Made by a program: the position numbers and the translations under genes. Below the pieces are notes generated by a model, which saw nothing but the letters and a program-made list of their open reading frames with translations, was not told the DNA's origin and did not search any database. DNA of 64,000 nucleotides from Ostreococcus lucimarinus (lineage: Eukaryota): assembly GCA_000092065.1 (NCBI GenBank), contig CP000595.1, one strand, 5' to 3'. Shown one piece after another: positions 3,226 through 59,379 of the stretch (its first letter is position 1; every line of letters starts with the position of its first letter).

Positions 3226-4548
3226 ATGGCGAGCGCGACGACCAAGGCGACGCGTCGACGGTTGAGCTGGCGCGACGCGCTGGACGAGACGCGGACGTAC
3301 GACGACGACGACGGGGACGGCGCGAAGGACGGATGGGCGCGGCGCGGTGGCGCCGCGGACGAAGAGAACGCGACCGCGCGACGAGCGAAGGGTCAAAAAA
3401 CGAGCGCGTCGCCTCGGAGAGCGCTCGCCGCGGTGGATGCGAACGCGACGATGACGTCGCCGACGACGCGATGCAACACGTTTTTGGCGGGGTCGACGCC
3501 GGGGGCGATGAGCGCCAAGCACGCGTCGCGGGTGCGCGCGCTCGTGGAGGTGGATGAACCGGAGGAGGAAGCGGAGGTGGCGGAGATTTCGTTTGACTTC
3601 GAGGACGAGAGCGCGATGATGTCGCCGGCGTCGGTGGACGACGCCGAACTCGAGTCGGATTCCACGGGCGACGTCACGGTGGTGATGTCGAGCAAGCGAG
3701 GAAGGCTGTCGCGCGTGAACGAGACGTTCAACGTGTTCAAATCGCTCGCACAGCTGGCGATATCGCCGTCAGAGTTGGACGTCTCCAAGCGACGCGCGCC
3801 GACGCCGATGAACACGCCGGCGACGACGTTGACGTTCGACGACGACGTGGATTCGCCCGTCGTGCAAGCGAGAACCGAAGCCGATTTGCGCGACACGGTT
3901 GAGAAAATTGCCAGCTCTTTGGTGGACGTCGAAGACGTGATGTCGTCTTATACGACCAGAGTTCGCGCGCACCGCGTCGCGAAGGCGCTCGGGGCGGCGA
4001 TTTTCATGCTCGCCATTTCCGCTCGATTATACTTTGCCTGGAACGTCGCCATCGCGGCGTTCCGTCCGCGGTACGCGATCGATGGAACCGCGTTCGCGTA
4101 TCGTTGGTTTTGGCGTTCACGAACGAATTGGAACGTCCCGTTCGCGTTCGCGGGGTACGCTTCGTACGGTGAGTTTATGATTCAAAGGGCGCTCGACGTC
4201 GAGTCGCGGCGAGCGATGACGCGCGCGGCGGCGTTTCGAGCCGCCGTGAGCGCCACGAGGCGCGTCGCCGTCGTTTTGGCGTACATCAGCGGCGTTTTCG
4301 GAATTTTTGGGGTAGTCGCGAAGGCGAGCGAGGACCCCCATCCGGGCGAGACGACGAAGCGCGGCGCGACGTCGCCGTTCGTCTTCGTGCCGAAAGTCAT
4401 GATGATGATGACGACGACGACGGACCCAGAGCGGCCTCGGCGGCCCTCTTTTGGTGCGTCCGCTGTTTTGGATACTTCCGATCGCACATCATCGACGCAC
4501 CGGGAAATGGACGGCGAAGCCGACGAGTTCGCCGTCGTGCGCGTGTAA
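3226..4548 (+). CDS. Hypothetical protein with acidic N-terminal region and predicted TM helices
   Basis: A 440-aa ORF with non-random composition and hydrophobic segments (AAIFMLAISARLYFAWNVAIAAF; VAVVLAYISGVFGIFGVVA). No recognisable domain. Could include undetected introns. Confidence 0.35.
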   Translation: MASATTKATRRRLSWRDALDETRTYDDDDGDGAKDGWARRGGAADEENATARRAKGQKTSASPRRALAAVDANATMTSPTTRCNTFLAGSTPGAMSAKHASRVRALVEVDEPEEEAEVAEISFDFEDESAMMSPASVDDAELESDSTGDVTVVMSSKRGRLSRVNETFNVFKSLAQLAISPSELDVSKRRAPTPMNTPATTLTFDDDVDSPVVQARTEADLRDTVEKIASSLVDVEDVMSSYTTRVRAHRVAKALGAAIFMLAISARLYFAWNVAIAAFRPRYAIDGTAFAYRWFWRSRTNWNVPFAFAGYASYGEFMIQRALDVESRRAMTRAAAFRAAVSATRRVAVVLAYISGVFGIFGVVAKASEDPHPGETTKRGATSPFVFVPKVMMMMTTTTDPERPRRPSFGASAVLDTSDRTSSTHREMDGEADEFAVVRV

Positions 4549-4828
4549 AATAATTTCAGATTTCAGACGTGGACTTCTTTTGTAATAAAACACACCACAC
4601 GAAGTGAAGTCAAGTCAACACGTGGATCGCCGATGCACGCATGGACTGACGGGTACGAAATCAGTGAGGTGAATAAATCAAAAACCAAAAAGAAGAATCG
4701 TAAGAATCGTTTAAGTACCAGATATCAACGCACAAAACGTGTACGAGCGTTCGGCGCTCAAACGCAGGCTGGTGGAAATCACAGAAAAGAACCCGAAAAA
4801 GAACAAAAGAACAAAAGAATCAAAAGAA

Positions 4829-5002
4829 TACCGGCGCAGGGGCTCGAACCCTGGACCACAAGCTTTCGCTACGCGAAACCTGAGAATGCGATTGGGAGCG
4901 CGAACTCCCCGCTTCGCTCGGATTTATTTTTTCGGACCCGATATTCATCGGGAAACCTCATATATTAAGAGGCTTGCGCTCTACCAACTGAGCTACGTCG
5001 GC
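4829..5002 (-). tRNA. tRNA-Lys (anticodon CUU) with a roughly 100-nt intron after position 37
   Basis: The minus strand reads GCCGACGTAGCTCAGTTGGTAGAGCGCAAGCCTCTTA, then the intron, then AGCTTGTGGTCCAGGGTTCGAGCCCCTGCGCCGGTA. This gives a canonical D arm, U33, CTT anticodon, perfect 5-bp anticodon stem, TTCGAGC T-loop and discriminator A, with no encoded CCA. There is a T-rich stretch about 35 nt downstream (Pol III terminator-like). One A5:C68 acceptor mismatch. Confidence 0.55.
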
Positions 5003-5198
5003 TAATGATGACAGAAATAAGCTAAAATCGTCCCCACCGATCGTCGCGCTGGCGATCGATGTTTGTTATGGGTTGAAGCGTAGTAGACGTCGGCGTCCAG
5101 AAGAAGCGCGCGGTCATCCCGCGACGTCGCCGGAACGAACGCTCTCTCAATTCGAATCGACACTGGATTACAATCAATCAATCAATCAATCAAAACTA

Positions 5199-6914
5199 CT
5201 ACCCGCAGTGCGCCTCGACGGCTCGAACGATCGCCCTTGTCGTCTCCTCGACGCGCGTCTCTTCGCTCGCCTCGACGTAGACGCGAACGCAATCCTCCGT
5301 ACCGCTCGGACGCACGAACGCGCGACATCGAGCGTCGTTCGACGCTCGCACGATGGCGTCGATGGCGTCCTGGAGACCCTCCGGCTCGGCGACGCGGCGC
5401 TCGGCGTCAAAGGTTTGAATCTTCGTCCTGTCCGCGACGACGACTTTGGTTTGTCTCGAGGGCAAATCTTTGTAAAACGATCCCAAACGAGGCGCCTTGA
5501 CGGTTCGCCGTAATATGGCCTCGACGAGTAAGATGCCGCTCATGGCGTCGCCCACGGAGGGATTGATGACCCGCTGCGCGTTCGTCAACGCCAAGAGCGC
5601 CTTGACGGCGGGCATGTCGCGAGCCACCAGCGCCTCCACCGTCGCGTCCTCGATCGCCTTGCTCGCGCTCGGGGAAAACAAAGCCGTCCCGTGGCCGTTC
5701 GATTCGAAGTACACCCCTATGTCGAATTCCTCCGCTCGATGGTGCAGGTGTTTCACCCCCGTCGGCACGCACGCCGGCGCCGCGCCGAGCTCGCGAGTCA
5801 AAAACTCCGTCGACGCTCCGTTGGCGTACGCCGTTTGCACGACGCCCACGGTGATGTCATTCAAATACGGTGCCGCTTCTTTGACGCGCGCGTTCATCCA
5901 GCACGCGATGAGCACCGCCAATTGATCGCCGTCGACCAAATCGACGCCCCCAGCGGCCGTCGTTTGAAAATAAACCAGTCGGTCCGCGTCGCCGTCGATG
6001 GACACGCACCGCGTGCCCGCGGGCAAGTTTTCAAAACCTCCGCGGGTCGGGATAGTTTTTCCCTTTTGCACGAAATCGCTACCGACGCCGTCGTTCAGCG
6101 ACGACGTCGGCTCGTCGCCTCGGTTTCGCAAATCAAACGCGAGCCCGTACGGCGCCACCGCTTCGCCGAGCGACGACAACTTCACACCGCCCACGCCGTC
6201 CGCGCAATCGATCACCACCGTCGCGCCGTGATCGTCGTCTTCGTCCTCGTCTTCGTCCCTCTCCGTCAGCGCGGCGTATCCCGCGGACAAGCGATCGTAA
6301 TACGCGCGCTCCGAGTCGTCGGCGCCGACGTTCGCGCAATACACGTAATAGTGCAACTGCGGCGTCGTCGCGATCCCGCGATCGACGGCCTCGACGCCCA
6401 TCGCGTGCACGCCCGCCAGCGTCGCGTCCGCGAGCGCGCGTCCGCTCTCTCGCGTGTCTCTCGCCACGAAGACGCGCGCCGACGCGTTCGCCGACGCCGC
6501 GTCCGCCGGCGCCGCCGTCGCCATCGCCTCTCGCAGCGCCCGCACCTGCGTCTCCGCGTCCCCGTCCTCGGCGTTCGCTAACATCTCCGCCACGCCCTCG
6601 AGCGCCATCGGCAGCGTCCCTCCCGACGGTTCCACGAGCTTCACGCCGTTATCCGACGCCGGGTTGTGGCTCGCCGTCACCACCATCCCCGTCGTCTTCC
6701 CCCCGTGCGCCATCGCTCGCGCCGCGGCGAACGCGCCCGCTCGAAAGCACGTCGATCGCAACGCCGTCGCCGTCGTTCGGAATCCCGCCGTGCCGTACGC
6801 GAACCGCGTCGGCGCCGATCGATCTCCATCGTCTTCGCGTCGCGGCTTCGCGTGCTTCACCGTCGCCTCGGCGTACGATCGCGCCCAGGGCTCGCGCGCG
6901 GCGTCCGCGGACAT
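5199..6914 (-). CDS. AGM1: Phosphoacetylglucosamine mutase (AGM1/PGM3, alpha-D-phosphohexomutase superfamily)
   Basis: FAYGTAGFR N-terminal motif, TASHNP active-site serine loop, DGDADR metal-binding loop, and C-terminal RPSGTE sugar-phosphate loop. The ORF runs to 7928 (909 aa), but the upstream 337 codons are an R/A-rich low-complexity read-through. Met at 6914 (MSADAAREPW..VKHAKP) fits AGM1 N-termini. Confidence 0.85.
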   Translation of the reverse strand: MSADAAREPWARSYAEATVKHAKPRREDDGDRSAPTRFAYGTAGFRTTATALRSTCFRAGAFAAARAMAHGGKTTGMVVTASHNPASDNGVKLVEPSGGTLPMALEGVAEMLANAEDGDAETQVRALREAMATAAPADAASANASARVFVARDTRESGRALADATLAGVHAMGVEAVDRGIATTPQLHYYVYCANVGADDSERAYYDRLSAGYAALTERDEDEDEDDDHGATVVIDCADGVGGVKLSSLGEAVAPYGLAFDLRNRGDEPTSSLNDGVGSDFVQKGKTIPTRGGFENLPAGTRCVSIDGDADRLVYFQTTAAGGVDLVDGDQLAVLIACWMNARVKEAAPYLNDITVGVVQTAYANGASTEFLTRELGAAPACVPTGVKHLHHRAEEFDIGVYFESNGHGTALFSPSASKAIEDATVEALVARDMPAVKALLALTNAQRVINPSVGDAMSGILLVEAILRRTVKAPRLGSFYKDLPSRQTKVVVADRTKIQTFDAERRVAEPEGLQDAIDAIVRASNDARCRAFVRPSGTEDCVRVYVEASEETRVEETTRAIVRAVEAHCG

Positions 6915-7797: not shown

Positions 7798-9288
7798 ATG
7801 CCCGCCGCGCTCCCCGTGGTCTCCGTCCAAGGCGGCAACGGCGCCACGAGCGCCCTGCCCGAAGTCTTCCTCTCCCCGATTCGTCCGGACATCGTCAACG
7901 CCGTGCACACGGGGCTGAACAAGAACAACCGTCAGGTGCGGCGGAGCGCGACGCGACCGCGCGATGCGAACGAGGGCGACGCGTGGACGCGCGCGCGACG
8001 CGAACGAGGGCGCGGGAACGAGAGAGCGACGACTGACGAATGTGCGCGCGTCGTTTTTGCGATCGCGATAGGCGTATGCGGTGTACAACCGAGCTGGGTG
8101 CGTCGACGACGCGAACGCGCGATCCATCGCGACCTCGGCGGGCGTCTGAACCCTCACCAGAGAGGGTTTCGGAGGCGCGCGACGACGACGACGGCGCGGC
8201 GCGGTGCGAGCGAACTCGAACGAGAGACTGACGAAAGATCGATTTAAACGAACAGGCACCAAACTGCGGCTGAATCCTGGGGTACCGGTCGCGCCGTGTC
8301 TCGTATTCCGCGCGTTCCGGGCGGCGGTACGCACCGCGCCGGTCAAGGGGCGTTCGGGAACATGTGCCGCGGCGGTCGCATGTTCGCGCCGACCAAGGTG
8401 TGGCGCCGCTGGCACCGACGCGTGAACTTGAAGGAGAAGCGATATGCGGTGTGCTCTGCGCTCGCGGCGTCCGCCGTGCCGGCGCTTTTGCTCGCGCGCG
8501 GTCACCGCGTCGAGGGCGTTCCGGAGGTGCCGCTCGTCGTCGACGACAGCGCGAGCTCCATCAAGAAGACGGCCAAGGCGGTTGAATTGTTGAAGCAACT
8601 CGGTGCGTACGCGGACGTCGAAAAGGTCAAGGCGAGCCGTAACATTCGTTCCGGTAAGGGTAAGATGCGTAACCGTCGTTACGTCCAACGCCGAGGCCCG
8701 CTCGTGGTGTACTCTGAGGACAACGGCGTCACGCGCGCGTTCCGCAACATTCCGGGTGTGGAATTGTGCTCCGTCGACCGCCTCGGTTTGCTCACGCTCG
8801 CCCCGGGTGGACACGTCGGCCGATTCATCATCTGGACCAAGAGTGCCTTCGACAAGCTCGACTCCATCTTTGGCACTGCGTCCAAGAAGAGCGCGTCCAA
8901 GAAGGGCTGGAAGCCGCCGACGAACATCATGGCGCAAACCGACTTGGCGCGTCTCATCAACTCTGATGAAGTTCAAAGCGCCGTCAACGCGCCGAAGGTT
9001 GGTGCTACGCGCGCGCACGCGCCGCTCAAGCGCAACCCGCTCAAGAACAAGTCCGCCATGGAACGCCTCAACCCGTACGCCAAGGTCGCTCGCGAGATGC
9101 AAGCTCGCGCGCAGGAGGAGCGCTCCAAGGCTAAGGCGAAGAAGAGCGCCACTGCGCGCTCGGCGGTTGGCCAAAAGTTCTACGAATCCATGAAGGTGGA
9201 CTCCAACTACGAAGGCGAACTTTTCGAAGATTTCGACGACTGGCTCACCCGCGGCGCGCCCGTGGTGCAAGGCGGCGACGACGAATAA
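7798..9288 (+). CDS. RPL4: 60S ribosomal protein L4 (uL4), three exons: join(7798..7935,8072..8097,8256..9288)
   Basis: Near-identical to conserved uL4 blocks ([20 protein letters not shown] / [57 protein letters not shown]...). Exon 1 ends NNRQ|GTGCGG. A 26-nt microexon (8072..8097, AYAVYNRAG) restores the conserved PYAVSxxAG segment. The second intron runs GTGCGT..AACAG, with ACTGAC branch motifs in both introns. Confidence 0.85.
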
Positions 9289-28335: not shown

Positions 28336-29075
28336 TCAACCGGGATAGGTCTCGGTGAGCGCGGATAACGTCTTCGGTAAGCCGACGAATTTCAACTCGC
28401 CCCACTGTCGCCACGCGAAGGCGCACGTTAAACAGTTGAGCACGATGGTCGCCGCGGCGAAAATCAGGGAAACCAAACTGTAATCTGCGTTTTTGCACAC
28501 GTAATAATCCGAACTCAATACCACGGACGCGCACTCGGTGATGGACATGACGACGAACGTCGCCATGGCCGCGGTGAACAGCGCGTAGGACGCGAACTCC
28601 GTCCCGGGCGGCGGCGCCTTGCGAATCACGTACATCGCGATCAAGATCACCGTGTACGCCCAGAATCCCGCGTACACACCGACGACGCCCTTAAATTGAT
28701 AAAACTTCGTGAATCCACACCCCGCTTCACCGCAGTCGTTCAGCGTGCTCAGCTCCGGCCCCGCCAGTCCCTCGGTTTGTTTCGCCATGAACGAAAACGT
28801 CGTCAACGCCATCAACTGTTCGTTCGTCGTCGTCGTCGCGTCCTAGGTCAGTCTCCGCGCGTGCGAGTTCACCGTCGCGTCGCGTCGCGTCGCGTCGCGT
28901 CGCGTCGCGTCCCACGCACGCTCTCCACGAGCAACGCTCGAAACTTTGGATTCTTCATCAGCCTGTGATTCATCAGCGACGTCCCCTCCACGCTCGCTCC
29001 CACGCGTTTCAGCAGCGGTTCCCGCGCTTCGTCCGACGCCCCGGGCGCGTCGTCCATCGTCTCATCGCTCGCCAT
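28336..29075 (-). CDS. Four-TM membrane protein (CASP-like/MARVEL-like topology), two exons: join(28336..28815,28920..29075)
   Basis: Exon 2 is the 159-aa 4-TM ORF. Exon 1 (MASDET...ALLVES) ends at GAG AGC|GTGCGT. The 104-nt intron carries a (GTCGC)n microsatellite, an ACTGAC branch motif 32 nt before the acceptor GAACAG|TTG, and is phase-0 in frame. Confidence 0.5.
28874..28911. repeat. (GTCGC)7.6 pentanucleotide microsatellite inside the intron of the 4-TM gene
   Basis: Read directly from the sequence. Confidence 0.9.
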
Positions 29076-32936: not shown

Positions 32937-33578
32937 GTGCCCCACGCGCGCGCCTCGACGATGGATTGTTGCGCACGCGTCGACGCGCGCGTATCCGCGC
33001 GCGAGGCACCCTCGCACGCGCGAACGCGACGCCTTCGTCCTCGCCACCATTTTTCGGCAAGCTCGACTTTGACGCGTCGCACGCGCGCGCGCGTGGCGTT
33101 CGCGCGCGCATCGAGCGACGACGGCGTCGCGAGTGACGTCGTTGGAGTCGTCGTCGTCGATCACGGCTCGCGCCGCGCGGCGTCGAACGAGCAGCTCGAA
33201 CGGTTTGCGGCGCTGTACGCGACGGCGACGGGACGCGCCGTCGTCGAGCCGGCGCACATGGAGCTCGCACCACCGACGATCGCAGATGCGTTCGAGCGGT
33301 GCGTCGAACGAGGAGCGAACGTGGTCGTCGTGGCGCCTTTTTTTCTGTCGCCGGGACGACACTGGCAGGAGGACATACCGAGACTGGTGGACGAGGCGGC
33401 GGCGGCGCACCCTGGGGTGAAGTATTTAATCTCTGCACCGATAGGGTTGCATCCGCTTATGGCGGAGGTGATCGATTCGCGTTTGAGGCATTGTTTAGCG
33501 CACGTGAATGAAGGTGGACCAGAGTGTGATGTTTGTGCGGGGTCAAAGTTTGGGTGCGAGCTTCGGCGAACGAGTTAG
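32937..33578 (+). CDS. SIRB: Sirohydrochlorin ferrochelatase (SirB, CbiX-type) with C-terminal Cys cluster, plastid-targeted
   Basis: CbiX-small fold motifs (VVVDHGSRR, VEPAHMEL, FFLSPGRHW) and a C-terminal CxxC...C cluster (CDVCAGSKFGC) as in plant SirB, preceded by an R-rich transit peptide. Confidence 0.75.
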   Translation: MPHARASTMDCCARVDARVSAREAPSHARTRRLRPRHHFSASSTLTRRTRARVAFARASSDDGVASDVVGVVVVDHGSRRAASNEQLERFAALYATATGRAVVEPAHMELAPPTIADAFERCVERGANVVVVAPFFLSPGRHWQEDIPRLVDEAAAAHPGVKYLISAPIGLHPLMAEVIDSRLRHCLAHVNEGGPECDVCAGSKFGCELRRTS

Positions 33579-45454: not shown

Positions 45455-46789
45455 CTTACGCGAGGGAGGCGAGGAGGGCGCTGGCGGTCTCTTGGACATC
45501 AGCAAGAAGCGCGGTGGCGGCTTCTTGGTCCTTTTGGCGGATGGAGAAGTCGAGGTTTTCGAGCTTCTTGTAGAAGGCCTTGGCTTGCGCGGCGTCCGCA
45601 CCCTTGATTTCGACGAGGTTGTTGATGTCGAAGCGGAGGGTACCGACTTGGCGGCGAAGCTCGTTGGACGCTTGGGTCCAGTACTTCTTGCCGACGTACT
45701 CACCAACATCCTTGTTGATGCGAGTCTATAAATCGTAAGTGGCACATTGCATCGTCAGTCTCTCATTCGTCGTCCTCGTCACGTTCGTCGTCGTCATTCG
45801 CCGCGTTTCGCGTCGAGCGCCGCACGCACCACAGACTCCGTCGCGCGCGCCGCGGTTTCCTTTTGCGAAAGCTTTTGGAAAGAGAAGCGGGACGGGCCAT
45901 CGGATCGCGGCTTTTGGTCCAATTCCAAGTCACGAGCCTTCGCGCGCACGAAATTTGTCAACAGTCAGTCTCGAGCTCTCGCGCGCGTTCGCTCGCCTCA
46001 ACCACCCTCCACTCGCCCGATCGATCGATCCGGGCGGATTCGAGCGAATCTCGCGAGATTCGAGGGCGCGACGCGATTTTACGCGTAAATAGCGCTTCGA
46101 GAGCGTTGAATACGGTATTCGACCCCCCGAATGGGTTTTCCACGCTCGCATCGATCGACGCGACCGGCCCGGGTTCGACCGGTCGTCCAGGTTCGACGCA
46201 CCTCGTAGATGAGCTGCAACCCGGTTTGGTTCTCCACGCGCTTGTCCGTGAGCTCGATGCCCGTCGCCGCGAACGCGGCCGGGGTCGCGCTCAAGACGAC
46301 CGCCGTGACGGCGGCGAGGGACACAGCCTGTGCGCGCGCGATAAAATCCAGCACACGCGCGATCGCGAGTTCGCACGCGACGCGCGCTCGAGCGTCGGAC
46401 GACGCGCGCGCGCGCGGGATGACGATCGATCGCGAATGCGATAGCGATCCACGCCCCGCGCGAATGTGCGCGCGCGTCGACGTCGAGCGCGCGTCGGTGG
46501 ACGCGATCGCGCGTTTACGGAGCGGGGCGATTCGGTCAGTCGAAATTCATTCGATCGTTCGCGCGCGTCCCGGGCGTCGAAAGCGCGTCGGACGCGTCGA
46601 CGCGTGCGCGATAGAATCGCATCATCACCATCGTTCGCGCTCGTATCAACCATCGATCGCTCGATCGCGGGTCCGTACCTTGTTCGCCGAGGCCTTGACG
46701 ACCGTGTTCGCCTTGACGGACTTCGAGGTGGTGATCTTTTGGGCGATGGCCTTACCGGTGAAGGCGGACGTGGACGCGGCGACAGACAT
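45455..46789 (-). CDS. psbQ: Photosystem II oxygen-evolving enhancer protein 3 (PsbQ), four exons: complement(join(45455..45724,45829..45936,46202..46327,46679..46789))
   Basis: Not in the ORF track. Exon 1 is an S/T/K-rich stromal transit peptide (MSVAASTSAFTGKAIAQK...) ending AAG|GTACGG. Exon 2 is a hydrophobic lumenal signal with AFA|A cleavage site (AVSLAAVTAVVLSATPAAFA-ATGIELTDKRVENQTGLQLIYE). Exons 3 and 4 (ARDLELDQKPRSDGPSRFSFQKLSQKETAARATESV / TRINKDVGEYVGKKYWTQASNELRRQVGTLRFDINNL...FYKKLENLDFSIRQKDQEAATALL...) align with the PsbQ mature region (..[50 protein letters not shown]..). All introns are GT..AG and phase 0, two with ACTGAC branch motifs. Mature length is about 147 aa. Confidence 0.7.
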
Positions 46790-46961: not shown

Positions 46962-49844
46962 TTATACGGGCGTACCGCCCCGATCTCGATCTCGATCTCG
47001 ATCTCGATCTCGATCTCGATCCGCGGACTCGCGCGTGAAGCCGTCTCGACCGTTCTCGTTTGGGCAATACTTTGCCACGCCGTCGTCCGAGATGGGCACG
47101 ACAGATTGTTCGCCGGCGTCGTAACTGATCGACGGCGACCACACGAGCTGGATGGTTTCGCCGACGTTCTCGAAGGAGTGAATCCAACCGCACGGCATGA
47201 ATAAAATGTCGCCCGCCTCGACGACGGCGCCGAAGCCGCGCGAACGCGCGATTTTGGGTTGTTTGTCCAAGTCGACGTTGAAGGCGTTCCCCAGATAGAC
47301 GGGATTGTACAACTCTTCACCGCCGACGCGCGCGGAGAGCGGGTAGAGGTTTTCCTCATCGGCGCGATCCCAGACGACGGCGCGTTTCGAGCCTTGAACC
47401 ACTAAAACCATCACGTGAGCCGGTTTGGCGTGATGATGCGCGTGATACGCTCGAACGCCATCGCCACTGGCGAAGAGCATAAACTTTTTGAACTCCGTAG
47501 GTCGCTCGCGAAAGAGTATCTTGGAGATATACGACCAGTCTCCGCGCAATTTCGTTTCGACAGCTGCTTTGACGCGTTCGGCGAGTGCCGGACATTGTTC
47601 AATAATGTGCCACGAGTGTACGCTCGGTGGCCATAAATTATCCGCTGGGTGTAAAAAGTCCACGCCGCGTTTTCTGGCTATTTTGGATTCCCCCATCAAC
47701 TCACTATCGAAAAAATCTCTCAGTGTTTTAATCTTTCCTTTGCCTTCGAGAAAATCCAACGTTTCATTCAGCGTCAAACCTCGTGTCGTTTCGAGACGTT
47801 CGGAAAGATCTCGCAAAAGTTTTTGATGCGTCGTTTTCGTCATAGACTGGAACAATGGCACTATTTTCGACCCCAAGTCGGCGAATGCATCGCCGCATAA
47901 ATCTAAAATGAGCTCTCGCGTCACGACGCTTCGTAGCACAGTTGCAAGGTTAGCGTTTTCGATCACCACTGGTTGCCCTTCCTTGACGTATTTCCGCTCG
48001 AACGCGTCAATTGATAGTGTAGATGCGTCAACGCGCTCGATGTTGTTCCACTGAAAACTCGGATCGCTCGACGACAGCAGCAGCGGTATATCATCATGTT
48101 GCGGCGCCTCGACCGTCGGCGCGCGTTTGTTTCGTTGATGATCCTCAACTCTTTCGCCACGACCGAGGTTGGCTTGATCATCTTGAATTCGAACTAAAGA
48201 CTCTAGGAAAGACGTAACACTTTGGGCATCGTTCGGTCCGATGAAACTCTGTGCGATCGCATTCAACTCCTTATGATTTCGCACATACGGCCCAAAGTGT
48301 GACGTTTTCATCTCGCGTCTGGCTTTTAGTGACTCTTCCACGGGCCACGGACAATTTAATGGATCGCAACACGGCGCATTAATGTCATACTGACTTTCTG
48401 CTTGAAGCAAAGTAGTCTTAAGCGCACCCTCAAAGCCGTAACGATTCAATAAAGTCGCGCGATCTTTCAGAAAGGCGACATCTTCTTCGGCGATGCTGTA
48501 CTTTTCCATCAACTCCTCTATTGTTGCGTCAGTGACTTCCGCCAAAAACGCGCTAAACGTGGAAGGAAACGTGCGGTGAATGGCACCCCCCTCCACCCAA
48601 CATCTGTAATCTAAGATAGCTCCGATAGTCGGTGACCAGTTTCCGTTTTCAAGCTCCACGATGCACGCCGGTTTAGTTTCGTTGGCAGACTTTGCGTGGC
48701 ACCTTTCCATCCACGGCAAAGTTTTTTCTTTCTCATAGATCACATAACCTGCAACATAGTGCCAGTGATGGCGCGTCCCGGGAATGCTCACTGTGCTGGT
48801 TTCGTCCTCACGTTTCAACATGTCCTCGTTGTCTATCAGCATCAACGACCCTTTGGCTTCGTCGATGAAGATGTTGAATATATTTCTGTCGTGGTTACCA
48901 AGGAGGAAGTCCATCAGAGTCATCCCTATGACGTCCTCTCGCTTAAGTCGCGATACAACGAGAAAAAGTTCTTTCGTCATCATGTTCTGGCCTGGTCTGG
49001 CACCATTGATATCAGTTGGCGCGATTCCCTTTGCCCAGTCTGTGACGAGAACGTGAGTGTTTTGCTTTCCACCAAGAGAACGTGTGTCGCGTGGCGTGAA
49101 AAACTTCAAAGTCTTTGCCTCCGTAGGCGACACAAGTCGCCCGAACCCCATTGTTTCGATCAATCGATGGATGGCTGATATCCTTTCCGGGGATCGATCA
49201 CGCTGACTGTGGAAACCGCCACACGTTTCGTCAACCGGCGTCGCGTTTGCGTGTTGACGAAATTGTCCACGAATACCGCACCAAGCCTTGACGCTCACCT
49301 TTTTCCCTTCGCTCGTAACTCCTCGCAACACCATTGCCTCAGATTTGCCGACATACCTCCCTGGATTTCCCGCGTCGATGCGCTCAACTTTGACGTCGCA
49401 GTCGCAGCGCTCGCACCACCCACGCGAGTCGACGACGTCGTCTTCGCCCAGCTCGGAATGAGGCACGCATGTGGAGCAAGACGAACACGTCTCAAAGCTC
49501 GCGCGTGTACGCTTGTGATTTGTGTCTGCCCCGCGTTCATCGTCACTATCTTTCCGCACGTCGGCGTCGGCGTAATCAGCGTCAGCGACACCATCGGCGA
49601 GTTTCAGCGCTCTAACAGCAATCGTCTCGCGACGCGGCGACGTCCTCGTGAGTGCGACGGTGAGCACGCACACGAACGCGATAGAATAACACGGTGGTTT
49701 CCACCGCGCGGGCCTTCGACGCCTCTTCGTGGCGTGATGCCACATCGGAGGCGCGGAGTGACGTCGGGACGGCGACAAGCGAGAAGGCGTCGTAGAACGC
49801 ATGGGAACTAAAGCGACGCGTGCGTAACGAATGCGCTGCTTCAA
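46962..49844 (-). CDS. JmjC (cupin) domain protein with an N-terminal kinase-like domain and C-terminal (DR)6 tail
   Basis: C-terminal JmjC fold (HAHHHA..., ILFMPCGWIHSFENVG). The N-half contains a catalytic-loop-like LLGNHDRNIFNIF...LIDNE segment of uncertain family. The last codons are translated from a (GATCTC)n microsatellite. Confidence 0.65.
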   Translation of the reverse strand: MKQRIRYARVALVPMRSTTPSRLSPSRRHSAPPMWHHATKRRRRPARWKPPCYSIAFVCVLTVALTRTSPRRETIAVRALKLADGVADADYADADVRKDSDDERGADTNHKRTRASFETCSSCSTCVPHSELGEDDVVDSRGWCERCDCDVKVERIDAGNPGRYVGKSEAMVLRGVTSEGKKVSVKAWCGIRGQFRQHANATPVDETCGGFHSQRDRSPERISAIHRLIETMGFGRLVSPTEAKTLKFFTPRDTRSLGGKQNTHVLVTDWAKGIAPTDINGARPGQNMMTKELFLVVSRLKREDVIGMTLMDFLLGNHDRNIFNIFIDEAKGSLMLIDNEDMLKREDETSTVSIPGTRHHWHYVAGYVIYEKEKTLPWMERCHAKSANETKPACIVELENGNWSPTIGAILDYRCWVEGGAIHRTFPSTFSAFLAEVTDATIEELMEKYSIAEEDVAFLKDRATLLNRYGFEGALKTTLLQAESQYDINAPCCDPLNCPWPVEESLKARREMKTSHFGPYVRNHKELNAIAQSFIGPNDAQSVTSFLESLVRIQDDQANLGRGERVEDHQRNKRAPTVEAPQHDDIPLLLSSSDPSFQWNNIERVDASTLSIDAFERKYVKEGQPVVIENANLATVLRSVVTRELILDLCGDAFADLGSKIVPLFQSMTKTTHQKLLRDLSERLETTRGLTLNETLDFLEGKGKIKTLRDFFDSELMGESKIARKRGVDFLHPADNLWPPSVHSWHIIEQCPALAERVKAAVETKLRGDWSYISKILFRERPTEFKKFMLFASGDGVRAYHAHHHAKPAHVMVLVVQGSKRAVVWDRADEENLYPLSARVGGEELYNPVYLGNAFNVDLDKQPKIARSRGFGAVVEAGDILFMPCGWIHSFENVGETIQLVWSPSISYDAGEQSVVPISDDGVAKYCPNENGRDGFTRESADRDRDRDRDRDRDRGGTPV
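46982..47020. repeat. (GATCTC)6.5 hexanucleotide microsatellite, coding for the (DR)6 C-terminal tail of the JmjC protein
   Basis: Read directly from the sequence. It lies within the final 20 codons of ORF 46962..49844. Confidence 0.9.
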
Positions 49845-49879
49845 TCACGATAAGTCTATCTATTGATTATTGCTTAATA

Positions 49880-52800
49880 CTATTTTGGGGATTCCCGCGA
49901 GTTCGTGGAGTGCGCGGTGAGATGGCGCTCGTCCAAGGCGATTAAACGTTCGCCGCGTCGGTGTGTTCGAGCTTTCCAGCGCTCACGTAAATCTTGCAAC
50001 TGTGAGCTCAAAGCGCCGTGTTGCTGGCGAATAGTAATCGTAGAGTCAGCCTTGATCGTTTCAAGTAAATCGTCGTCGGCGAAAGGAAGACGTTGACCAG
50101 TCATGCTTCGAAGTTGGATGCGTTCGCTTTCCTTTGCCATTTTCTCTTGATGAATGATCTCTTCGTCTCTCTTGGCGTCGAATTCGTCGACAATCGCCTC
50201 TTCAAATTCCAAGTCGCGAATAGCGCGCTTGATGAGGCCTTCTTCGCCCTCTTCGCGGAACTGGCGAACCAACGTTCGGGCAAAATCATACCATGCCCAT
50301 GCGTGCAGGATGAACAACAAGGCCGTGATGAGATCGACAAAAGTCGAGCCTTGTCCACCTTGTTCGCCTGATTGTTTGAAAATCAGTCCGCCGGTGAATG
50401 TTGCCATAGTAGCAAGTAAGCCATGTGTCTCGATCTTTGCGTACTTTTCGCCGGCATACGGTTTTGCGACGATGTGGAATACAAAGAAAAGTTGCAACAT
50501 ACAATTCACCGTGTATCCACCAATGACTGCACTTCGTCTAGATACGATCACTATGAAGATCAGGATGAATTTTCTCGCGAATATGACCCATTCCCACCAC
50601 CACGCGGACTTGACATTGATTCCCTTGAAGAGCAAACCGAGACGATATTGCACCATTGCTGAATCGTGCTCGCCGACAATGTCTTCTCCGCGAGCGAGCT
50701 GCAGCAAACCGTATGGAATACCGACGATATACAGTATAGCCCAAACGATGACCATAAACAAGTAAAGTGAGTAGGCGGTGCCCCGGCATTGGACCGAATA
50801 GTCGGATACAAAGTGTCGATCGCTGTCGCCAGACGTACCAGTGCACTGCGTGAACTCAGCCAAATATTGAACAAGGGTGGGATAGAGAAGCCACAGAGTC
50901 GCGACGAGCCATGATATTACTATGTCGTAAGCTCTGATGTTTCGCACTTCTTCAAGACCGACATCGTGCTTGTTCACTTTATTCGTGTTACCACTATCGA
51001 TGGCGTTTGTTTCTTCATCTTCAGCAGAATCATTTGCCTTTGTCTTCTTCGTGGCTTCCACTCTAGCTTGGGCCGTTGCCTCTCTCAACTCTTCGACGTA
51101 CTTGATAACCGTGAAGATGATGAACAAGAATATCATCAAGCCTAGTGGGAGCAACTCGTGAAACAGTAGATTTCCGTAAAACTTCCAGCCAATGGCGCAC
51201 TTTGCTGACGCCGACCGTATGTCAGGTAACGAAAGCTTCTCGGCGATAAGTAAGAATGCTTTCATCGAATCCGGCCATGCGAGGTCTAAATTTTTCGCCA
51301 ACGCTGTCATTTGTAAATAGGTGACAAACGATTTTATCATGCCGACGACTTGTGAACTTCGGCGTTGATTGACAACCCGAATGAGCCACACCAGCAACAA
51401 TATCCAGAGAAAGTTGACGACGACGATCGGAAAGTTGAGCACTCGATATGCTCCTGCCGAACAATCGTAACATTTTGGTGGATATGCTTCTCGAATGGCG
51501 TGGTACGCATAACCATTCGCACAAGCTGCGCACATAGCACCAGTGTACCCTGCATCAAGACATGTGCTGTTTACGCCGCCTAGGCACGCGTCAGGGTACG
51601 GACACGCGCGAAATTTCAGCGTTTGTCGGTCAAATCTACTGAAACCAGGAAGCGCTTCGACATTTTCGAGCTCATCACCGTAACATTTTGCACCTTTCGG
51701 GCATGCCATACATTTGTAATCATCGAGTGGGAGTTGTCGATAATAGCTCTCGAATGGGACACTCGTTTGAGAGATGCAGTGGCAGGAACTCTTGCTCACG
51801 TGACCAAGGGCGCCTAAAAGTTGCACTCCTGACTGTGCTTGATATGTTTGCCTCAATCTGCCGTCAACTCGCGAAGTATCCATGGAGATTGGGCACGACG
51901 TGCATGCTCCGTCACCGTGCGCCACTTTGTAGAAGCCATTCTTGCACGGCACACACATGCCATACGGGTGAAGAGCATCGAGCCATCGAGATGACCCAGA
52001 TGTAGCTGTCTTATATAGAGTTATATTCGTTTCGACATAAATGGTATCGATATCTTCAGTATATCCCGTGCCTCCACTAATGTCGGCGGTGAAGCCAGGA
52101 ATGCACTCGCACACGCCAGAGCGAAGCACGCTGTTCGGTTTGACTGTTGAGCAATTCATGACCGTCGTTGGAGTTGAAGGTACGATACTCACATTCAACG
52201 TTGAAGCCGAAAAATTCAGCTCATAGGCATTCGCGCGCTCACCGATGATTGTGATTGAATCGAATTTCGCCAAGCCGTTCACCATCGCCGCCTCTGTCCC
52301 TGAAATGCTCGCCACAGCGGGCGATACACTGACCGTAAGCGTCGTATTGATATCGACGCACACGTTTCCTACAGAATCGATCGCCGCGATGACTGGTGCA
52401 GGCGAAAGTGCGAAGTCATTTTCGTTTATGAAGGGAGGTGCCGTGACGACGGCCAACGCTGTCGGCGCGCCAGGGACTACGGTGAACTCCAACATGTCAG
52501 TCTCCAGCACAGGATAGAGCGCACCAGGACATCGACTTGAGCCACATGATGAAGCGAATCGCAAGCGATAGGTCCCAGCTAATGCATTTTGAATATGCAG
52601 ACCGACATTATAGTGTGTGTCGGGCGCAATACCACTATACCCAGCCTCCCTGCAATATGATGGTGCGGGGTTGGTGTACACCACTCTGTACGTGTAAGCA
52701 CCAGTCGTGGGATTACTGGAGACCACAGTCCTCGGGCTAGAGTCAAGTGAATCTTTGCACCATCCCACTCCACCATTTACTGCGAGAAGAGATCCATCCC

Positions 52801-55800
52801 ATTCGGCTTGCAAGGTTGGTAGCACACTTGCCCGTGGTTGATCCTCCGCTGGCACGAAAGAAAATAGCTCAACCGTGATGTTACGCGCTTCGGTGTCCCA
52901 CATCGAGCCCACATGATAACCGCCAGGATCAGTCATTTGCACGACAAAGTCACGAAGATCCAGGGTTTGCGCTGCGATATATTGTGCAGGATCCCGACAC
53001 AAACCTCGGTCGACACGTGTGAACGAGTTACCGGTGCACGTGTCAAGCGCCGCTGGGTACCCAGCGCTGTAAGTCAGTTGTGTGGAGACCGAATCGAGAC
53101 CCGCTGTAGAAAACGTCAATGAGTACGTTCCGGTGCACGGTCGATAGAATACGATATCATCAAACACCGCTGTGCCCGCAACGATAGTCTGAGGTGTGTA
53201 TGATACATTCGTCTCAAAGTTGCAAGCGCTCACGACCACGCGCTCCGCCTTTACAGAAACTTCGTAATTTAGGTTGAGCGCATTCAAGCCTGCATCGACC
53301 ACACGAATCTGAATCATACTCAATTTTACTTTTTTTGCCGTGGAATACGCAGTCTGCAACGCGATTGCTGCACCGCTGGCAGGTGACGTGAAAGTCTGAA
53401 CAATTAATCCACCATTAATATTTTGCATGAAAAAGAAAAAATAAGTAAGCCTTACCGGTGAGATGAAAAGCGCACTTGCAGTGCCAATCGTAATCGTAAA
53501 TGTACGAGTCGCGGGCGCAACGCTGAGCCCTAACGCGGTACAATTGTCGCAGTTGAAAGAAATCACATAATCCCCGATCTGTAATTAATTGTGTGTGAGG
53601 ATGAAAGTTCTAATGAAATCTGTCATCAATGGGAGCGTACCTCTGGGGCATTGATCACTGTGTCACGAAGTAGTGTACTGTCGGTTCCCGCCGCTATGAC
53701 GCCATTTCTCCCGCTCGTCGCAAACGTATGCCTACATTTTGAATAAAATTAATTAATTCCGGTTATGAATTAATTAGAATCGAAACGTACCTTTGACCCA
53801 CGATACTGGCGATAATACTGTACTCGTGAGTGTTAAGCGACCCGAAACGATTACCTGCGTCATCTGCGATCGCAATTTCGAAAGGGCCGAGGGTTGTTGA
53901 TGCCGTCGCCGGGTATGATCCTTGTGGTGAATTTGCCACGACCAGTTTAGCTGGATCTCCTAACGCCACTGTTACCGCATAAGTCGCAACGGCCTTGCCG
54001 TTGAGATAAAATACGATATCGTGCTGCTGCGCAGTCGGCGCGAGCAGCACGAGGTTCTTAAACTCAACGACGCCGGGTGTGCCGCCCTGTGTATTTAAAT
54101 AAGTTAATTAATTGTTCTCCGTGAAATAAATAATTCATCGCGTTCGAGCATAGTTGACTCACCTGAGTTGCACACGTCGTAGTGCTACCACACGATATCG
54201 CAAAAGTTTCCCCTCCTATCAAGGGATTAATTCCCTGTGGATAAGCCGCCAATTCGGCGGTTTGGCAGACAACAAATATTTGTGCCCCGGTCGGCGAAGC
54301 CGAAATAAAATTCCCTCCGCCATCGTAAAGTCGCCCAACTAGAGGACTAGAAGCGTTCGCAATCGATGTTTCTAGCTTAGATTTGAATGTTCCACTACCT
54401 TGTGTTTCGTCGAGGATCAATTGTGCCGCATTTCCCAAAGTCACGGAAAAGTAGTACTGTGCACCCAGCAGACCCGGCGAGTGGATGTCGACGGCGTACG
54501 TACCGATGTACGGCTTGGCGATGTGTAGTCCATCAAAATAGCTTCCACCAGACTCAGTGTTGGCTTCAAAAGTCGCCACTGATGTACATGATACTCCATG
54601 CAGTGTCGACGATGTACTGGCAAGCCCAGCACATTCGCATGCGTTGCCTTCACCAGTTCTTCTGCACAAGGTGACATTTTGCGGCGATAAGTGCACACGT
54701 CTGCTAGGACATGTCTCGCAAGCTTTCGTTTCAAGATCATCGACGGGATTGAAAGCTCCGTCGAGAATAGTCACCACGACTGGGTACATTGCAACGTCCG
54801 ACGCGGCGCGATATTGATGACAAGTGCAGTTGACATTAGTTTGGCACGCTCCGTCGACTGTGGCGCAGTACGGCAGTAAGCCGAGGTGATTGGATCGCCC
54901 TGCCGTGATCTCTAAATCCACGCTTGCAGACCTCAAACTCGAATCGGACGACACGAAAGTCAAATTGTACGTTCCTTTCTGCGGCTTGACGAGATGCAAA
55001 CCTGAGAACGTCGCAGTCCCAGCGCTCGAAGTGGTTTCCACAAGAGAGCCGGTCCTCGGGTACAGTGAAGTATCTGTGTATACAGTAAGTACCGACGTTC
55101 TTGCGATTGTTGTCGCATTTGCACCGAGTATGAACGGATGAATTTCGACGTTTGTGTCATTCATCATCGCCGTCAACGTAACTCCGTTCGGCAAAGTCCC
55201 CGTCGGCGACTCATTTCCCGCCCCATCCACCGGTACGACGACGAAGTCATCCAGAGGCACAGAGTGCCCGGCTGAGTATGCTGTTGCCTCGGATAGTTGG
55301 ATGCTTTCAGTGAATGATGGTGAAAATTCTAAGACTTTGGGGCTGGTGACCTTGAATCCGCTCACGGCTCCAATCAAAACGCTCACCGTGAGAACTGTAC
55401 TTTGTAGCTTTCCCACGCGCAACTCGCCACTCACTTCAGCGCCAGTCTCAATGACATTAAGGGTGTGCGTACCGACTTTCGGTGAATTTGCAATCAAACC
55501 CGTGAAAGAAACTTGACCGTTGCCATTCGTGAACATCGCAGTCGTTCCAGAAAGTTTCAAAGTTTCGCAAGTCACTTGAATGGTACGATTTGGCGCTACT
55601 GCATCCGTGGTTGAGTGACGATCCGCGGTTCCCATTGAATTGCCGAGCATATCTTGAACGTATACCGTGAACGAACCCAATCCTACAGATTGATCAGCTG
55701 TTACCGATGATAATATCGATTGACTCGAAGCTAGTTCATATCCAGCATCTCCAGCTAGCACATTCACCACTTGGAGAACGGGTGTTAAATCGCCAGACGA

Positions 55801-58800
55801 GAATGTCAATCCGAACTCCCCGACGACAGGTCCGACTACTTTGAGATCAGAAAATCGCCATACACCGCTGTCGTCTCGTTTTACTTGCAAAGTACCATCC
55901 AAAGTGATACCAGCCGATGCATGTACGGTCACAGTACGCGGCGTAATTTCCGCCGCACCGACAAAGTTATTCCCCCCGTCGTATGCGCCAATGATAATTT
56001 CACCTACGGATTGCTTGGGTGCCTCGGCGTAAACTGTTCTCTTACTATACGTCCCATTTATACGAAGGTAAGACGGTTCGCCGATCTCCATTTGCATAAT
56101 TGAATGCGCGCGATATCGAACTCCATTCAACGTCGTCGTAAACTGAACAATGTACTTTGAAGCCTCGCCAAAGTCTCCTCGTGTGGCATCGCTATACGTG
56201 ATATCGTCCGTGGATCCTACAGCTCGTGAACCAGAAGGTGGCATAGCGACAAGTCTGAGATCTGAAAATGATACTCGACCATCATTAGTCGTCTTGTTCA
56301 GCGTTCCAGTGAGCTGGGCTCCGATACTTCTCTCTCTGTAGTCTTCGTTGCTGTTGAGTGTACCCGTCACGAGTGACGCTTGTACGGTGACGTCATCAAG
56401 AGATAGCGTCTGAAGCATACTTCCACCGATGTCAACGATGTCGACTGTCAAATGTCCGATCGATACGTTTCGGGCCGCGTCGAGCACGACGACATCTGTT
56501 GGAAATAACGTAGCACTTGATATCATAGAATTCTCCGTCGCCGCGCCGGGTGTCACCTTCAAACCACCGCTCGAACCTGGTGTTACGGATAAATAGGCGT
56601 GTGCAAGTACACCAAGGTCATCACTACATGCACCATCATCATTGGTACAATCGGTTGCGGTAAAAGTGATCACGTATTCCCCAGCGGTTGGTATCGAGGA
56701 TAGCTGTGGAGTGAATGTTGCGATGCCGTCCGAAGTCTGCACTGATGACGTTGCCTCGGTGATAGCGACCTCTGACGGCCCAGAAATACTCGCCGAAATT
56801 GTGTAACCTTTCGTACCTCCTTGACCACGGTCATAGTTGATTTCAGTTCCATCGATATCCACAAGTCCAACCTTGAACGTTCCAAGTGAGAAATCTGTCG
56901 CGGCAACTCGAGCTTGATGCGAATCCGGTCCACTCAAGAGCTTAACTCCAACTGGTGGTCCATGAAGCTTCAAAATCCCTCCACTAACGTAATCAATACC
57001 GTTCAGTGCAACTGCGACCTGCGCATCTTGCGGTTGTCCGTTCGTAAGCCATGGAAGCGGACTCCCAACTGGATTGGCGCACCTTCCATTGACTACATTG
57101 CACACAGGACACTTGATTTCTGACGAACTAACGAACACCGCACTGGTCACACTCGTCGTGTTATCGTTGAACTTACATTTTAAATCGGGCGAATTCAGAA
57201 ACGGACCTCCGAGTATGCGAAGCAGTACTGGCGCGAGATCGGCATCCTCGCCTGTGAGAAGAACCTTGGCGTCATCTGAACCAATCTTTGTACTAATTAT
57301 GACGGCTGGATCGTGATAACGTAGATATATCTGACCAGAGTTCCACAGCGAGTTGGTCCAAATGCTTGTTGGATCGCTCGAATCGGTTGGTAATCCATCG
57401 AACGATATTTGGACTTCGCTATAACCTATAGTGGAGGAGTTTGAATTTGACGCCGACGGTGCCATGCATGAGAGCTCTGTCGCCGAAACATAAGTTGCTG
57501 GCGACCAAGATGTCTTCGAAAACCCATTATTAGCGTCATAAGTGTGTCCAAACCTACATGAAATCGAATGACTCATTCCACTGGCAAGGGTAGGCGAATA
57601 AAAGCCAGATCCATGAATTTTTATCGGCGTTCCAGACGTGAGCGCGCTGATGTGAGTCGGCTCGATCCCCGAAACGATCACCGTGGAGTACTTTGTGTAC
57701 GTCGTACTCGCCGCAGAACTCACCGCGAACACGCTGCGCTCGCCCGGTACGGCGCTGATGCCACCGATGGTGTGGCTTTCTTCAAATGTCCCCACACGCT
57801 TGAAACAACCGCTTATACAAGCACTAGACGTGTCCGTACCCCCTATTTCGATCTTGACGATCCGACTCTTACCGCTTTCACGCGATCCCACGGCCCAGTA
57901 CATGAAATCTTTTTCTCCTGCCGTCGCTCCGGTTTGAACGGTAGCGCTCAGAGCATCACGCTCTCCGAGCGCTGCGTCAAGAGCAATCACGGCGAGTGGA
58001 CTATCGCCTTCAGCAAAATTCAAGTCAAACATGAAGATGCATGCCGCGCGATTTTTACACCCCGGACAGTCGCCGTCTCGACCTGAAGTGCCCACGTATC
58101 CATAGCCGTTGTGCTTTGTGATCGCAGTAAACGTCGAAAAGCGTCCTTGCTTTGAATCGAGCTGCCCTTCGCACGCCTCGAGCACCTTGACGTTTGTTGA
58201 GTCCAAATACATTTCAACCCCATCGCCGTCACGAGTCCCTGAGTTTGTATTCACCTTGAACAAAGTAGGATAAAAGGTTTTGCCATCGGAGTCATCCAAG
58301 AGGGCAGATCCAGCGAAGATGACATAGTTGACACCTGTTTGAGTATGCGCCACACTCGTCTCCAACCTCATGGCGTCCGGGGCAAGCGAACATGTGGGGC
58401 ATTTAGTGCTCAGTAAACCCGGAGCTAAGAAGTTTATTCCTTTATCGTTCAAACTGCCGTCGACGTGACCAATGACGCTTCGCGACAGACCGTCTTCGTG
58501 CGTGGCCTTGTACACTATCATGCCGTTGGCTGGGTCTGTGCCCATGGCATCCAAAATGTACTGCTCTTTTGAGAAAGTCGCACTCGCCTGACCATTTGTC
58601 AATGAACTGAGAACGCAGTTCGCCCACTGCGATGAATCTGATGAGCATGTAGTACCGACATACTTGAAAAGCGAAAATCTAAACTGATTTGCCGTGGTCT
58701 GATGCCACATGTTCACTGGCACGACGACGCCCGTCAGCGCTGTCGACAAATCGGCAGCCATTTTAGCGTACACTCCGTACCAACCGCGCGACTTCTGAGG

Positions 58801-59379
58801 ATCCACATGTCCATATGCTCTCGGATGCTTCGCTGCGCACCCGCTCGAGATCCCAATACCGCAAAAATTTGGCAAAGGTGTTATCGACAATGGCACCGCG
58901 CCCGTTGTCTCTCGTCTCGGTCCGTTCGTTTGTCCCCAACCTCTCGCCGTCACTGCGTTTGAGGTAAAAGTCTCCGGATACCTCGGATCGACTTCGATCA
59001 CTCGCGTTCCATTAGCATCTTGCGCGTAGACGTAAATTACGTTCTTTCGCGTGTCTACCATGACGTCTTCGACGTACTTTTCGTCGTACGCCGTCCCGGC
59101 GGTGTCGTACTCGTACCCCGCCGTCCCATCCAAGCGCGACTCTTTCACCACCGATGGCGTGGGAACATCGCACGCAAGTCCTGCCCATCCTGCCTCGCAC
59201 GCGCACACGCCGTCTAAGCCGCATCGCCCCTGTCCAGCGCTCGCCGAGCACCCGCGCTCGCAACGATTGAACGTCAAGCCTTGACATGAGTGCGCCAACG
59301 ACGCGATGACGACGACGAGCGCGACGGTGACGAGCGCTCTGAACCCTCGGCGCGAGCTTGTACGACCGTTACCACCCAT
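49880..59379 (-). CDS. Giant (about 3080 aa) surface-receptor-like protein: signal peptide, EGF-like module, multiple IPT/TIG and Ig-like beta-sandwich repeats, Cys-rich furin/ephrin-receptor-like modules, polytopic (7-8 TM) domain, cytoplasmic coiled-coil tail. Five exons: complement(join(49880..53395,53456..53578,53641..53731,53791..54086,54163..59379))
   Basis: ORFs 54064..59634, 53763..54050 and 49880..53566 join in frame through four short AT-rich GT..AG introns (54087..54162, 53732..53790, 53579..53640, 53396..53455) with consensus donors (CAG|GTGAGT, AAG|GTACGT, GAG|GTACGC, CCG|GTAAGG). TIG-like repeats (e.g. VIVSGIEPTHISALTSGTPIKIHGSGF...SCRFG), the N-terminal EGF module (CQGLTFNRCERGCSASAGQGRCGLDGVCACEAGWAGLACD) and the C-terminal TM cluster are read directly from translation. 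Start is taken at Met 59379 (signal peptide); the ORF opens at 59634. Confidence 0.65.

Follow-up and report, generated by a model that had tools for sequence, protein, structure and literature searches.

A 101-nt intron at the canonical site of an apparently single-copy nuclear tRNA-Lys(CUU) gene in an Ostreococcus-like picoalga

Analysis of a 64-kb stretch of DNA (the window, meaning the whole of the stretch analysed) identified a tRNA-Lys(CUU) gene that is very probably a functional, apparently single-copy nuclear gene, with a 101-nt protein-spliced intron between tRNA positions 37 and 38 (37/38). The gene runs from 5002 to 4829 on the minus strand and is 174 nt long, or 73 nt once spliced. 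It matched the Rfam tRNA family (RF00005) over the full model, positions 1-71, scoring 48 bits where the gathering score is 29 (E = 3.6e-7), and the alignment left a local insert of ~103 nt within the anticodon loop. ARAGORN with intron search (-i) returned tRNA-Lys(ctt) at c[4829,5002], with a mature length of 73 nt, a 101-nt intron and 'Intron Insertion Position(37-38)'. Both programs agree with a preliminary description of this DNA, which had placed a tRNA-Lys(CUU) at 4829-5002 with an intron of about 100 nt after position 37; the coordinates were right, while the strand needed correcting to minus. In its default mode, without intron search, ARAGORN reported no tRNA in the window, because intron search is off by default and not because the gene is absent. 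No other credible tRNA was found in the 64 kb by Rfam or by ARAGORN with intron search. A 'tRNA-Ala(cgc)' with a 110-nt intron, called by ARAGORN -i at 32955-33162 (+), was rejected as a false positive, having weak stems, GC-rich sequence and no Rfam support.

The anatomy is that of a tRNA gene of RNA polymerase III (Pol III), with A and B boxes inside the gene, a T-run 3′ of it and an intron free of T4. The segment TAGCTCAGTTGG matches what we take to be the Pol III A-box consensus, and GGTTCGAGCCC is presumably the B box; owing to the intron, the two are separated by ~135 nt. TTTT runs begin 4 nt past the 3′ end of the tRNA, in a T-rich tract that is a probable Pol III terminator.

The gene and its intron were 100% identical in 14 copies from one species (the window and 13 independent contigs), all of them at one locus, next to the gene for phosphoacetylglucosamine mutase (AGM1). 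A syntenic block, RPL4 - AGM1 - tRNA - unknown gene - GMP synthase, was recovered in Ostreococcus tauri (GCA_002158475.1) and in several uncultured lineages, and every locus of this block that was examined held a tRNA-Lys(CUU) gene with a 37/38 intron; in O. tauri, whose genome is sequenced and annotated, it measures 112 nt. Identity to the window across lineages was 80-86% for GMP synthase and 60-94% for AGM1. Synteny is not universal, since the AGM1-adjacent loci of L053-L062 had no tRNA-Lys(CUU). Metagenome collections comprising 241 million records were scanned both for the pattern at the end of exon 1, which gave 39 loci, and for the spliced junction. From the syntenic loci and the loci of the exon-1-end scan together, 23 distinct introns were obtained at the same site, 87-190 nt in length, from at least seven Ostreococcus-like lineages. 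By this comparison, the intron is ancestral to the genus. The preliminary description had offered a lineage-specific long intron as one of two options, which holds if the genus is meant and fails if the species is, given the orthologous introns across Ostreococcus-like lineages.

Other tRNA-Lys(CUU) copies, a question raised at the outset, were sought with the same scans. The spliced junction, GAGCGCANGCCTCTTAAGCNTGTGGTC, had no match in the 241 million records. Some intronless tRNA-Lys(CUU) genes did emerge from the exon-1 scan, but as nuclear paralogues from Ostreococcus they were ruled out, their backbones being unrelated. With the same 5′ half of the anticodon arm, two lie on virus-like contigs in arrays of 12 and 8 tRNAs (L025 and L027), and others, in L020 and L040, adjoin a tRNA-Ile(AAU). 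Published counts for O. tauri give 45-48 tRNA genes, therefore, on our reading, about one gene per anticodon.

After removal of the intron, the cloverleaf is intact and bears the marks of selection. In an alignment of the seven distinct spliced sequences, 98.6% of cells were paired, and the pairs 4:69, 7:66, 29:41, 49:65 and 50:64 had changed on both sides in a compensatory manner. The covariation score was reached by none of 500 shuffles. Once cut at 37/38, the mature anticodon loop reads CUCUUAA in all lineages. Lysine codons in the window favour the cognate AAG, with AAG:AAA ratios of 67:48 in four open reading frames (ORFs) and 33:12 in two conserved enzymes.

The context of the splice sites was also conserved. 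Eukaryotic splicing endonuclease requires an anticodon-intron pair for 3′ cleavage, and such a pair, C32:G(-3), was possible in 23/23 introns from at least seven lineages, despite differing surrounding sequence. With its site at 37/38 and position 32 able to pair with intron base -3, the intron has the features of the canonical endonuclease type. The central helix, 32-35 with intron -3..-6, could form three of its four pairs in every lineage, with the mismatched position varying by clade. In a hand check, no inner helix could be formed in the window intron, where +2..+4 (UAU) stand opposite -7..-9 (UGC). The one central-helix mismatch per lineage and the absent inner helix rule out a strict hBHBh' motif of archaeal type. 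Three central pairs without an inner helix would match the relaxed hBH motif at 37/38 reported as the rule for green-algal pre-tRNAs (PMC3978253); the bulge-helix-bulge fold proposed earlier as a test could thus be formed only in part, with most of the central helix and without the inner one. The relaxed motif fits the ruler mechanism of the eukaryotic endonuclease. None of the 23 introns contained TTTT, though A4 runs do occur.

The anatomy, conservation and covariation above, and the lack of an intronless copy in the records scanned, were observed directly; that Pol III transcribes the gene and that the endonuclease splices its product is what we infer. Pol III would transcribe the gene via the internal A and B boxes, perhaps with upstream elements, and would stop in the 3′ T-rich tract. 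The mature domain would fold into the cloverleaf, and the tRNA splicing endonuclease would cut past A37 and ahead of A38, at sites recognised by how far they lie from the mature domain and with the help of the C32:G(-3) pair beside a 3-nt bulge. The halves would be joined by tRNA ligase, and the product would decode AAG, the lysine codon that housekeeping genes of this GC-rich genome use more often. Across lineages, the intron drifts in sequence and changes length by indels and internal duplications, but keeps its splice-site context, its freedom from T4 runs and one or two small hairpin modules.

Two hairpins within the intron had been noticed in the preliminary description, and both were located, at 4937-4952 (hairpin 1) and 4894-4909 (the palindrome of hairpin 2). 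A counterpart of hairpin 1 was found at the same relative place in each of the eight lineage sequences that were compared, and three positions of its stem had changed in a compensatory way (C-G/A-U, C-G/U-A and U-A/C-G). This tally comes from per-sequence folds anchored on the CGA..UCG core; MAFFT/RNAalifold predicted no pairs for hairpin 1, because loop lengths differ. In hairpin 2, the sister loci L044 and L049 have only GCGAUuucaAUCGC in place of the palindrome, and we read the palindrome (GGGAG..CUCCC) as a lineage-specific insert into a smaller hairpin. A further module, C-GCAC-GUAAUA-GUGC-G flanked by ACC..GAUU (module 2), was present in six lineages, with five pairs, two of them double-changed and none broken, but was not recognisable in the window clade. 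Outside the modules, the intron could not be aligned between clades, and the window intron was largely unalignable with that of O. tauri. Length changed through repeat-unit variation and internal duplications, as in L046 (187 nt), and the introns of L023 (190 nt) and L042 (164 nt) contain a degenerate copy of the 3′ part of the intron plus exon 2. Permuted tRNA genes have been proposed to originate through tandem-duplication intermediates, which these long introns of L023/L042 and L046 resemble.

It may be asked if the intron has a function of its own, either as a stable and possibly circular RNA, like Drosophila tric31905, or through hairpins that bind a maturation or modification factor. Such a function would be compatible with the gene being an ordinary spliced tRNA gene, and we consider it rather unlikely. 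Two hairpin modules are kept across lineages by compensatory changes, 87-190 nt of intron are retained in an extremely compact genome, and Drosophila CR31905 offers a precedent (PMC4536317). On the other side, module 2 is not recognisable in the window clade, the palindrome of the window was inserted recently, and the rest of the intron varies by duplications beyond alignment. The window intron alone has a minimum free energy of -29.4 kcal/mol and folds no better than its shuffles (z = -1.0); thus, hairpins in the single sequence are no evidence by themselves, whereas the comparative data are. Those module alignments are small (6-8 sequences) and partly hand-anchored. Rfam at E <= 10 over 4700-5120 gave only the tRNA itself and a sub-threshold tRNA-like match on exon 2, and no conserved C/D or H/ACA box pair was seen on inspection. 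An intron-encoded box C/D or other RNA was ruled out: hairpin 1 contains GAUGA, but there is no D box (CUGA), terminal stem or Rfam match. The conserved hairpins are most simply read as holding a long intron compact, which would let the mature domain fold. A role for the intron once excised is conceivable, but finds no support in the window clade.

Several observations weigh against a functional, spliced gene. Splicing itself is something we infer. A bulge-helix-bulge-like fold is not the predicted ground state, and forcing the relaxed form in silico costs 6-8 kcal/mol relative to the minimum constrained by the mature domain; its central helix is one pair short and its inner helix missing. The absence of TTTT is only weakly significant alone (shuffle P = 0.086). 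The junction scan misses any intronless paralogue with a different anticodon-stem sequence. Finally, the acceptor stem holds an A5:C68 mismatch, noted previously and present in both the Rfam and ARAGORN structures, and a G1.U72 wobble, which, like the A73 discriminator, had gone unmentioned.

The acceptor stem could be taken to mean that the gene is a decaying copy, a pseudogene in which the long insert and A5:C68 are damage, with tRNA-Lys(CUU) supplied by another gene. The intron is indeed far longer than usual, and the gene escapes ARAGORN in default mode. However, A5:C68, the sole non-standard pair, is fixed in the window clade, in sister loci L044/L049 and in distant L023/L042, and is therefore tolerated and no sign of decay; G1.U72 and A73 are invariant in all relatives. 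Five stem pairs have been compensated and none broken but 5:68, and all 14 copies share the same exons beside a hypervariable flank. The junction scan found no intronless gene in the 241 million records, and copies of the window type all lie at one locus. A pseudogene is thus very improbable. Of the two options left by the preliminary description, the functional gene is supported by the orthologues, the compensatory changes, the invariant G(-3), the identity of the 14 copies and the lack of an intronless copy in the records scanned, and the decaying copy is rejected.

In two groups of relatives, the tRNA-Lys(CUU) gene carries a second insertion in addition to the 37/38 intron. In L044:399-483 and L049:1035-1119, whose AGM1 is 93.9% identical to that of the window, an 85-nt insertion lies at the junction of the T stem and the 3′ acceptor strand (65/66), in the context CCCCUG|GUAAGUCC...ACAGUAACUAACCCAGCCUUGUCGACCCACCAG|CGCCGGUA, with a GTAAGT donor and ACTAAC 19 nt before the AG. 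In L033:4090-4186 (97 nt) and L037:784-892 (109 nt), whose upstream flank is that of the L009 clade, so that they represent the orthologous locus, the insertion lies in the D loop (16/17), in the context GCUCAGU|GUACGUCUUA...GUCGUACUGACCGGAGUUGUUUCCUAUAUACAG|UGGUAGAGC, with a GTACGT donor, a pyrimidine tract and TACTGAC at 20 nt from the AG. Each type was present in two independent assemblies. A hand check found no bulge-helix-bulge in these insertions (0-1 of 4 central pairs), and both types lack TTTT. L033 and L037 agree exactly in the exons and in the first 10 and last 54 nt of the insertion, with a diverged middle; the divergence between the two is short, so that exon identity is not significant alone. 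The start of the L033/L037 insertion nearly restores the split A box (TAGCTCAGTGT). Part of the L044/L049 insertion (CGACCCGAATTACAGT..GCCTTGTC) recurs in the 3′ flank of an intact gene from the window's own species (L001). BLAST found no further copies of the second insertions in the window or the ~400 kb of related loci.

These insertions carry the GT-AG signals of spliceosomal introns, which the window intron does not, and the window gene has no second insertion of this kind. In O. lucimarinus introns outside chromosome 2, Irimia and Roy described a strong consensus of GTGCGTG and (G)ACTGAC(G), with ACTGAC in 87% (PMC2483917). About ten candidate spliceosomal introns with GTGCGT...(G)ACTGAC(G)...AG were seen in the window, including 4454-4664 (+), 8098-8255 (+), 28816-28919 (-) and 45726-45829 (-); they share the signals of the second insertions, with the same spacing in the examples checked. 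The first of these overlaps the last 95 nt of a 440-aa ORF and would swap its last 31 codons for 2, and the second lies immediately upstream of the RPL4 ORF. No description of spliceosomal-type introns in tRNA genes was found in the literature. If the sister-lineage genes are functional, the spliceosome would have to process a tRNA precursor. The tRNA-Lys(CUU) locus might then be a hot spot of intron evolution, with two splicing systems acting on one precursor and the spliceosome removing the GT..AG insertions in sister lineages, a tentative proposal that we think somewhat likelier to prove wrong than right. The canonical intron, with its covarying hairpins, may in addition yield a stable intron RNA.

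That the window insert is itself some other element, a spliceosomal intron, a group I self-splicing intron or a mobile element, is the least credible explanation: sister lineages do bear GT..AG insertions elsewhere in the gene and the locus is insertion-prone, but the window intron (AUAUAU...GCGAA) has neither GT..AG ends nor an ACTGAC branch motif, at 101 nt it is far below the size of group I introns, its site and -3 G are of the endonuclease type in every lineage, and a BLAST search of the window and of ~400 kb of related loci found no further copy of it. A repeated or mobile origin was rejected in the same way: with the intron, its flanks or the second insertions of relatives as query against the window and all loci, BLAST gave only orthologous copies. 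The coordinates of the tRNA-Lys(CUU) gene and its surroundings are collected in the table.

Table. Positions of the tRNA-Lys(CUU) gene, its parts and its flanks in the window
Feature	Position	Strand	Evidence or basis
tRNA-Lys(CUU) gene	4829..5002	-	Rfam RF00005 48 bits; ARAGORN -i
Exon 1, tRNA positions 1-37: acceptor 5′ strand, D arm, anticodon stem 5′ strand, CUU anticodon, A37	4966..5002	-	
Intron, 101 nt, canonical site 37/38, GC 0.50, sense strand without TTTT	4865..4965	-	
Exon 2, tRNA positions 38-73: anticodon stem 3′ strand, variable loop, T arm, acceptor 3′ strand, A73	4829..4864	-	
A-box-like internal promoter element TAGCTCAGTTGG, tRNA positions 8-19	4984..4995	-	position located; function by consensus
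B-box-like internal promoter element GGTTCGAGCCC, T arm	4840..4850	-	position located; function assigned
Intron base -3 (G), able to pair with C32 (window 4971)	4867	-	G in 23/23 distinct introns
Intron hairpin 1, CCCGAU gaau AUCGGG, CCCGAUgaauAUCGGG, structurally conserved 5′ module	4937..4952	-	8 lineage sequences
Intron hairpin 2, outer stem GCG../..CGC around GC-rich palindrome GGGAGuucgcgCUCCC (4894-4909)	4888..4912	-	
T-rich tract TTCTTTTGATTCTTTTGTTCTTTTGTTCTTTTT immediately 3′ of the tRNA, probable Pol III terminator	4790..4828	-	sequence
Hypervariable 3′ flank, unrelated segments or deletion in same-species contigs, beginning exactly past the tRNA 3′ end	4700..4828	-	contig comparison
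Upstream block, ~72-75 nt, moves with the tRNA upon inversion in L044/L049	5003..5075	-	locus comparison

The gene lies within a 650-nt spacer separating two convergent protein genes, the 440-aa ORF, which ends at 4548 and has no Pfam match, and AGM1, which ends at 5199. The GC content is 0.47 in the spacer and 0.50 in the intron, compared with 0.59 in the window; this spacer is what had been described as an AT-rich pocket. The closest named relative of the window AGM1 is that of O. tauri, at 67% identity, and many contigs of marine metagenomes (Tara Oceans, JGI) encode an identical copy of the 440-aa protein. Such identity and recurrence mark the window as nuclear DNA of an Ostreococcus-like picoalga (Mamiellophyceae) distinct from O. 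tauri. Elsewhere in the window, 48000-59000 has a GC content of 0.48-0.52 against 0.59 and holds three very long minus-strand ORFs (960, 1228 and 1856 aa) with almost no Pfam matches, recalling the low-GC outlier regions described for Ostreococcus chromosomes.

The sequence directly 3′ of the tRNA occurs in at least four unrelated versions among same-species contigs. In the window (4700-4828) and in L001 and L004-L007, unrelated segments of 0-150 nt start right after ...GGTA, and most of them finish in GGTA or GGTTA, followed by a common CTTAAACGATTCTTACGATTCTT. The L009 clade displays the same variability. The 3′ end of the tRNA looks like a recurrent insertion or repair hot spot. On the other side of the gene, the upstream block may hold upstream promoter elements. 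The tRNA and this block are inverted relative to AGM1 in L044/L049 and L009-L012, compared with the window and L008. A (CAAT)n microsatellite at 5168-5195, immediately past the AGM1 stop codon, is also found in relatives, with varying length.

These data indicate that long introns persist in essential, apparently single-copy tRNA genes of Ostreococcus even though its genome is extremely compact. The 23 natural variants of one orthologous gene show which parts are constrained, namely the -3 G, a partial central helix, the absence of T4 runs and the 5′ hairpin, while the remainder is free. If the spliceosome does remove the GT..AG insertions from a functional tRNA precursor, tRNA genes would be disrupted and repaired in a new way, and the case would provide a natural test of the splicing of Pol III transcripts, or of tRNA precursors made by RNA polymerase II, in green algae.

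Among known systems, the archaeal tRNA-Trp intron also lies in the anticodon loop, is ~100 nt long and has internal structure, and it encodes a box C/D guide RNA. The window intron differs in having no conserved C and D boxes, no Rfam match and no strict hBHBh'. In fission yeast, an mRNA-type intron is found in the Pol III-transcribed U6 small nuclear RNA gene. This may be a precedent for spliceosomal processing of a transcript made by Pol III, although it bears on the sister-lineage GT..AG insertions only and concerns a small nuclear RNA, not a tRNA.

The unusually large intron of Drosophila tRNA-Tyr CR31905 (~113 nt, counted from the printed sequence) likewise occupies the canonical site; covariant pairs in related species preserve its predicted structure, and it yields a stable circle (PMC4536317). 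The fly intron, tric31905, is circularised by the RtcB pathway. In the window gene, conservation extends to no more than one or two short hairpins. Permuted and ectopic-intron tRNA genes of green and red algae show that the same organisms tolerate disrupted tRNA genes (Soma 2014, PMC3978253), but the halves of the window gene are in normal order and separated by a single canonical intron. Land plants have introns in the tRNA-Tyr and elongator tRNA-Met families only, in agreement with the earlier remark that their tRNA-Lys is intronless, while two green algae in PlantRNA have intron-containing genes in most amino-acid families (PMC3531208). The closest counterparts are the tRNA introns of O. 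tauri and O. lucimarinus (PlantRNA; Maruyama et al. 2010; PMC13578239), which, like that of the window, are long and sit at 37/38, and which occur in most families of minimal tRNA sets. Those of O. tauri have been called 'unusually long (~64 nt)' (PMC13578239). Long introns being documented in many O. tauri isoacceptor families, the length of the window intron, rightly termed unusual against the general background first given, is less so within Ostreococcus (PMC13578239, PMC3531208). The window nevertheless represents a different lineage from O. tauri (AGM1 67%), with proteins that were found in metagenome sources only, and its 101-nt intron is above the quoted ~64 nt. Thus, long tRNA introns were already known in Ostreococcus, and the window gene adds a lineage at the long end of the range.

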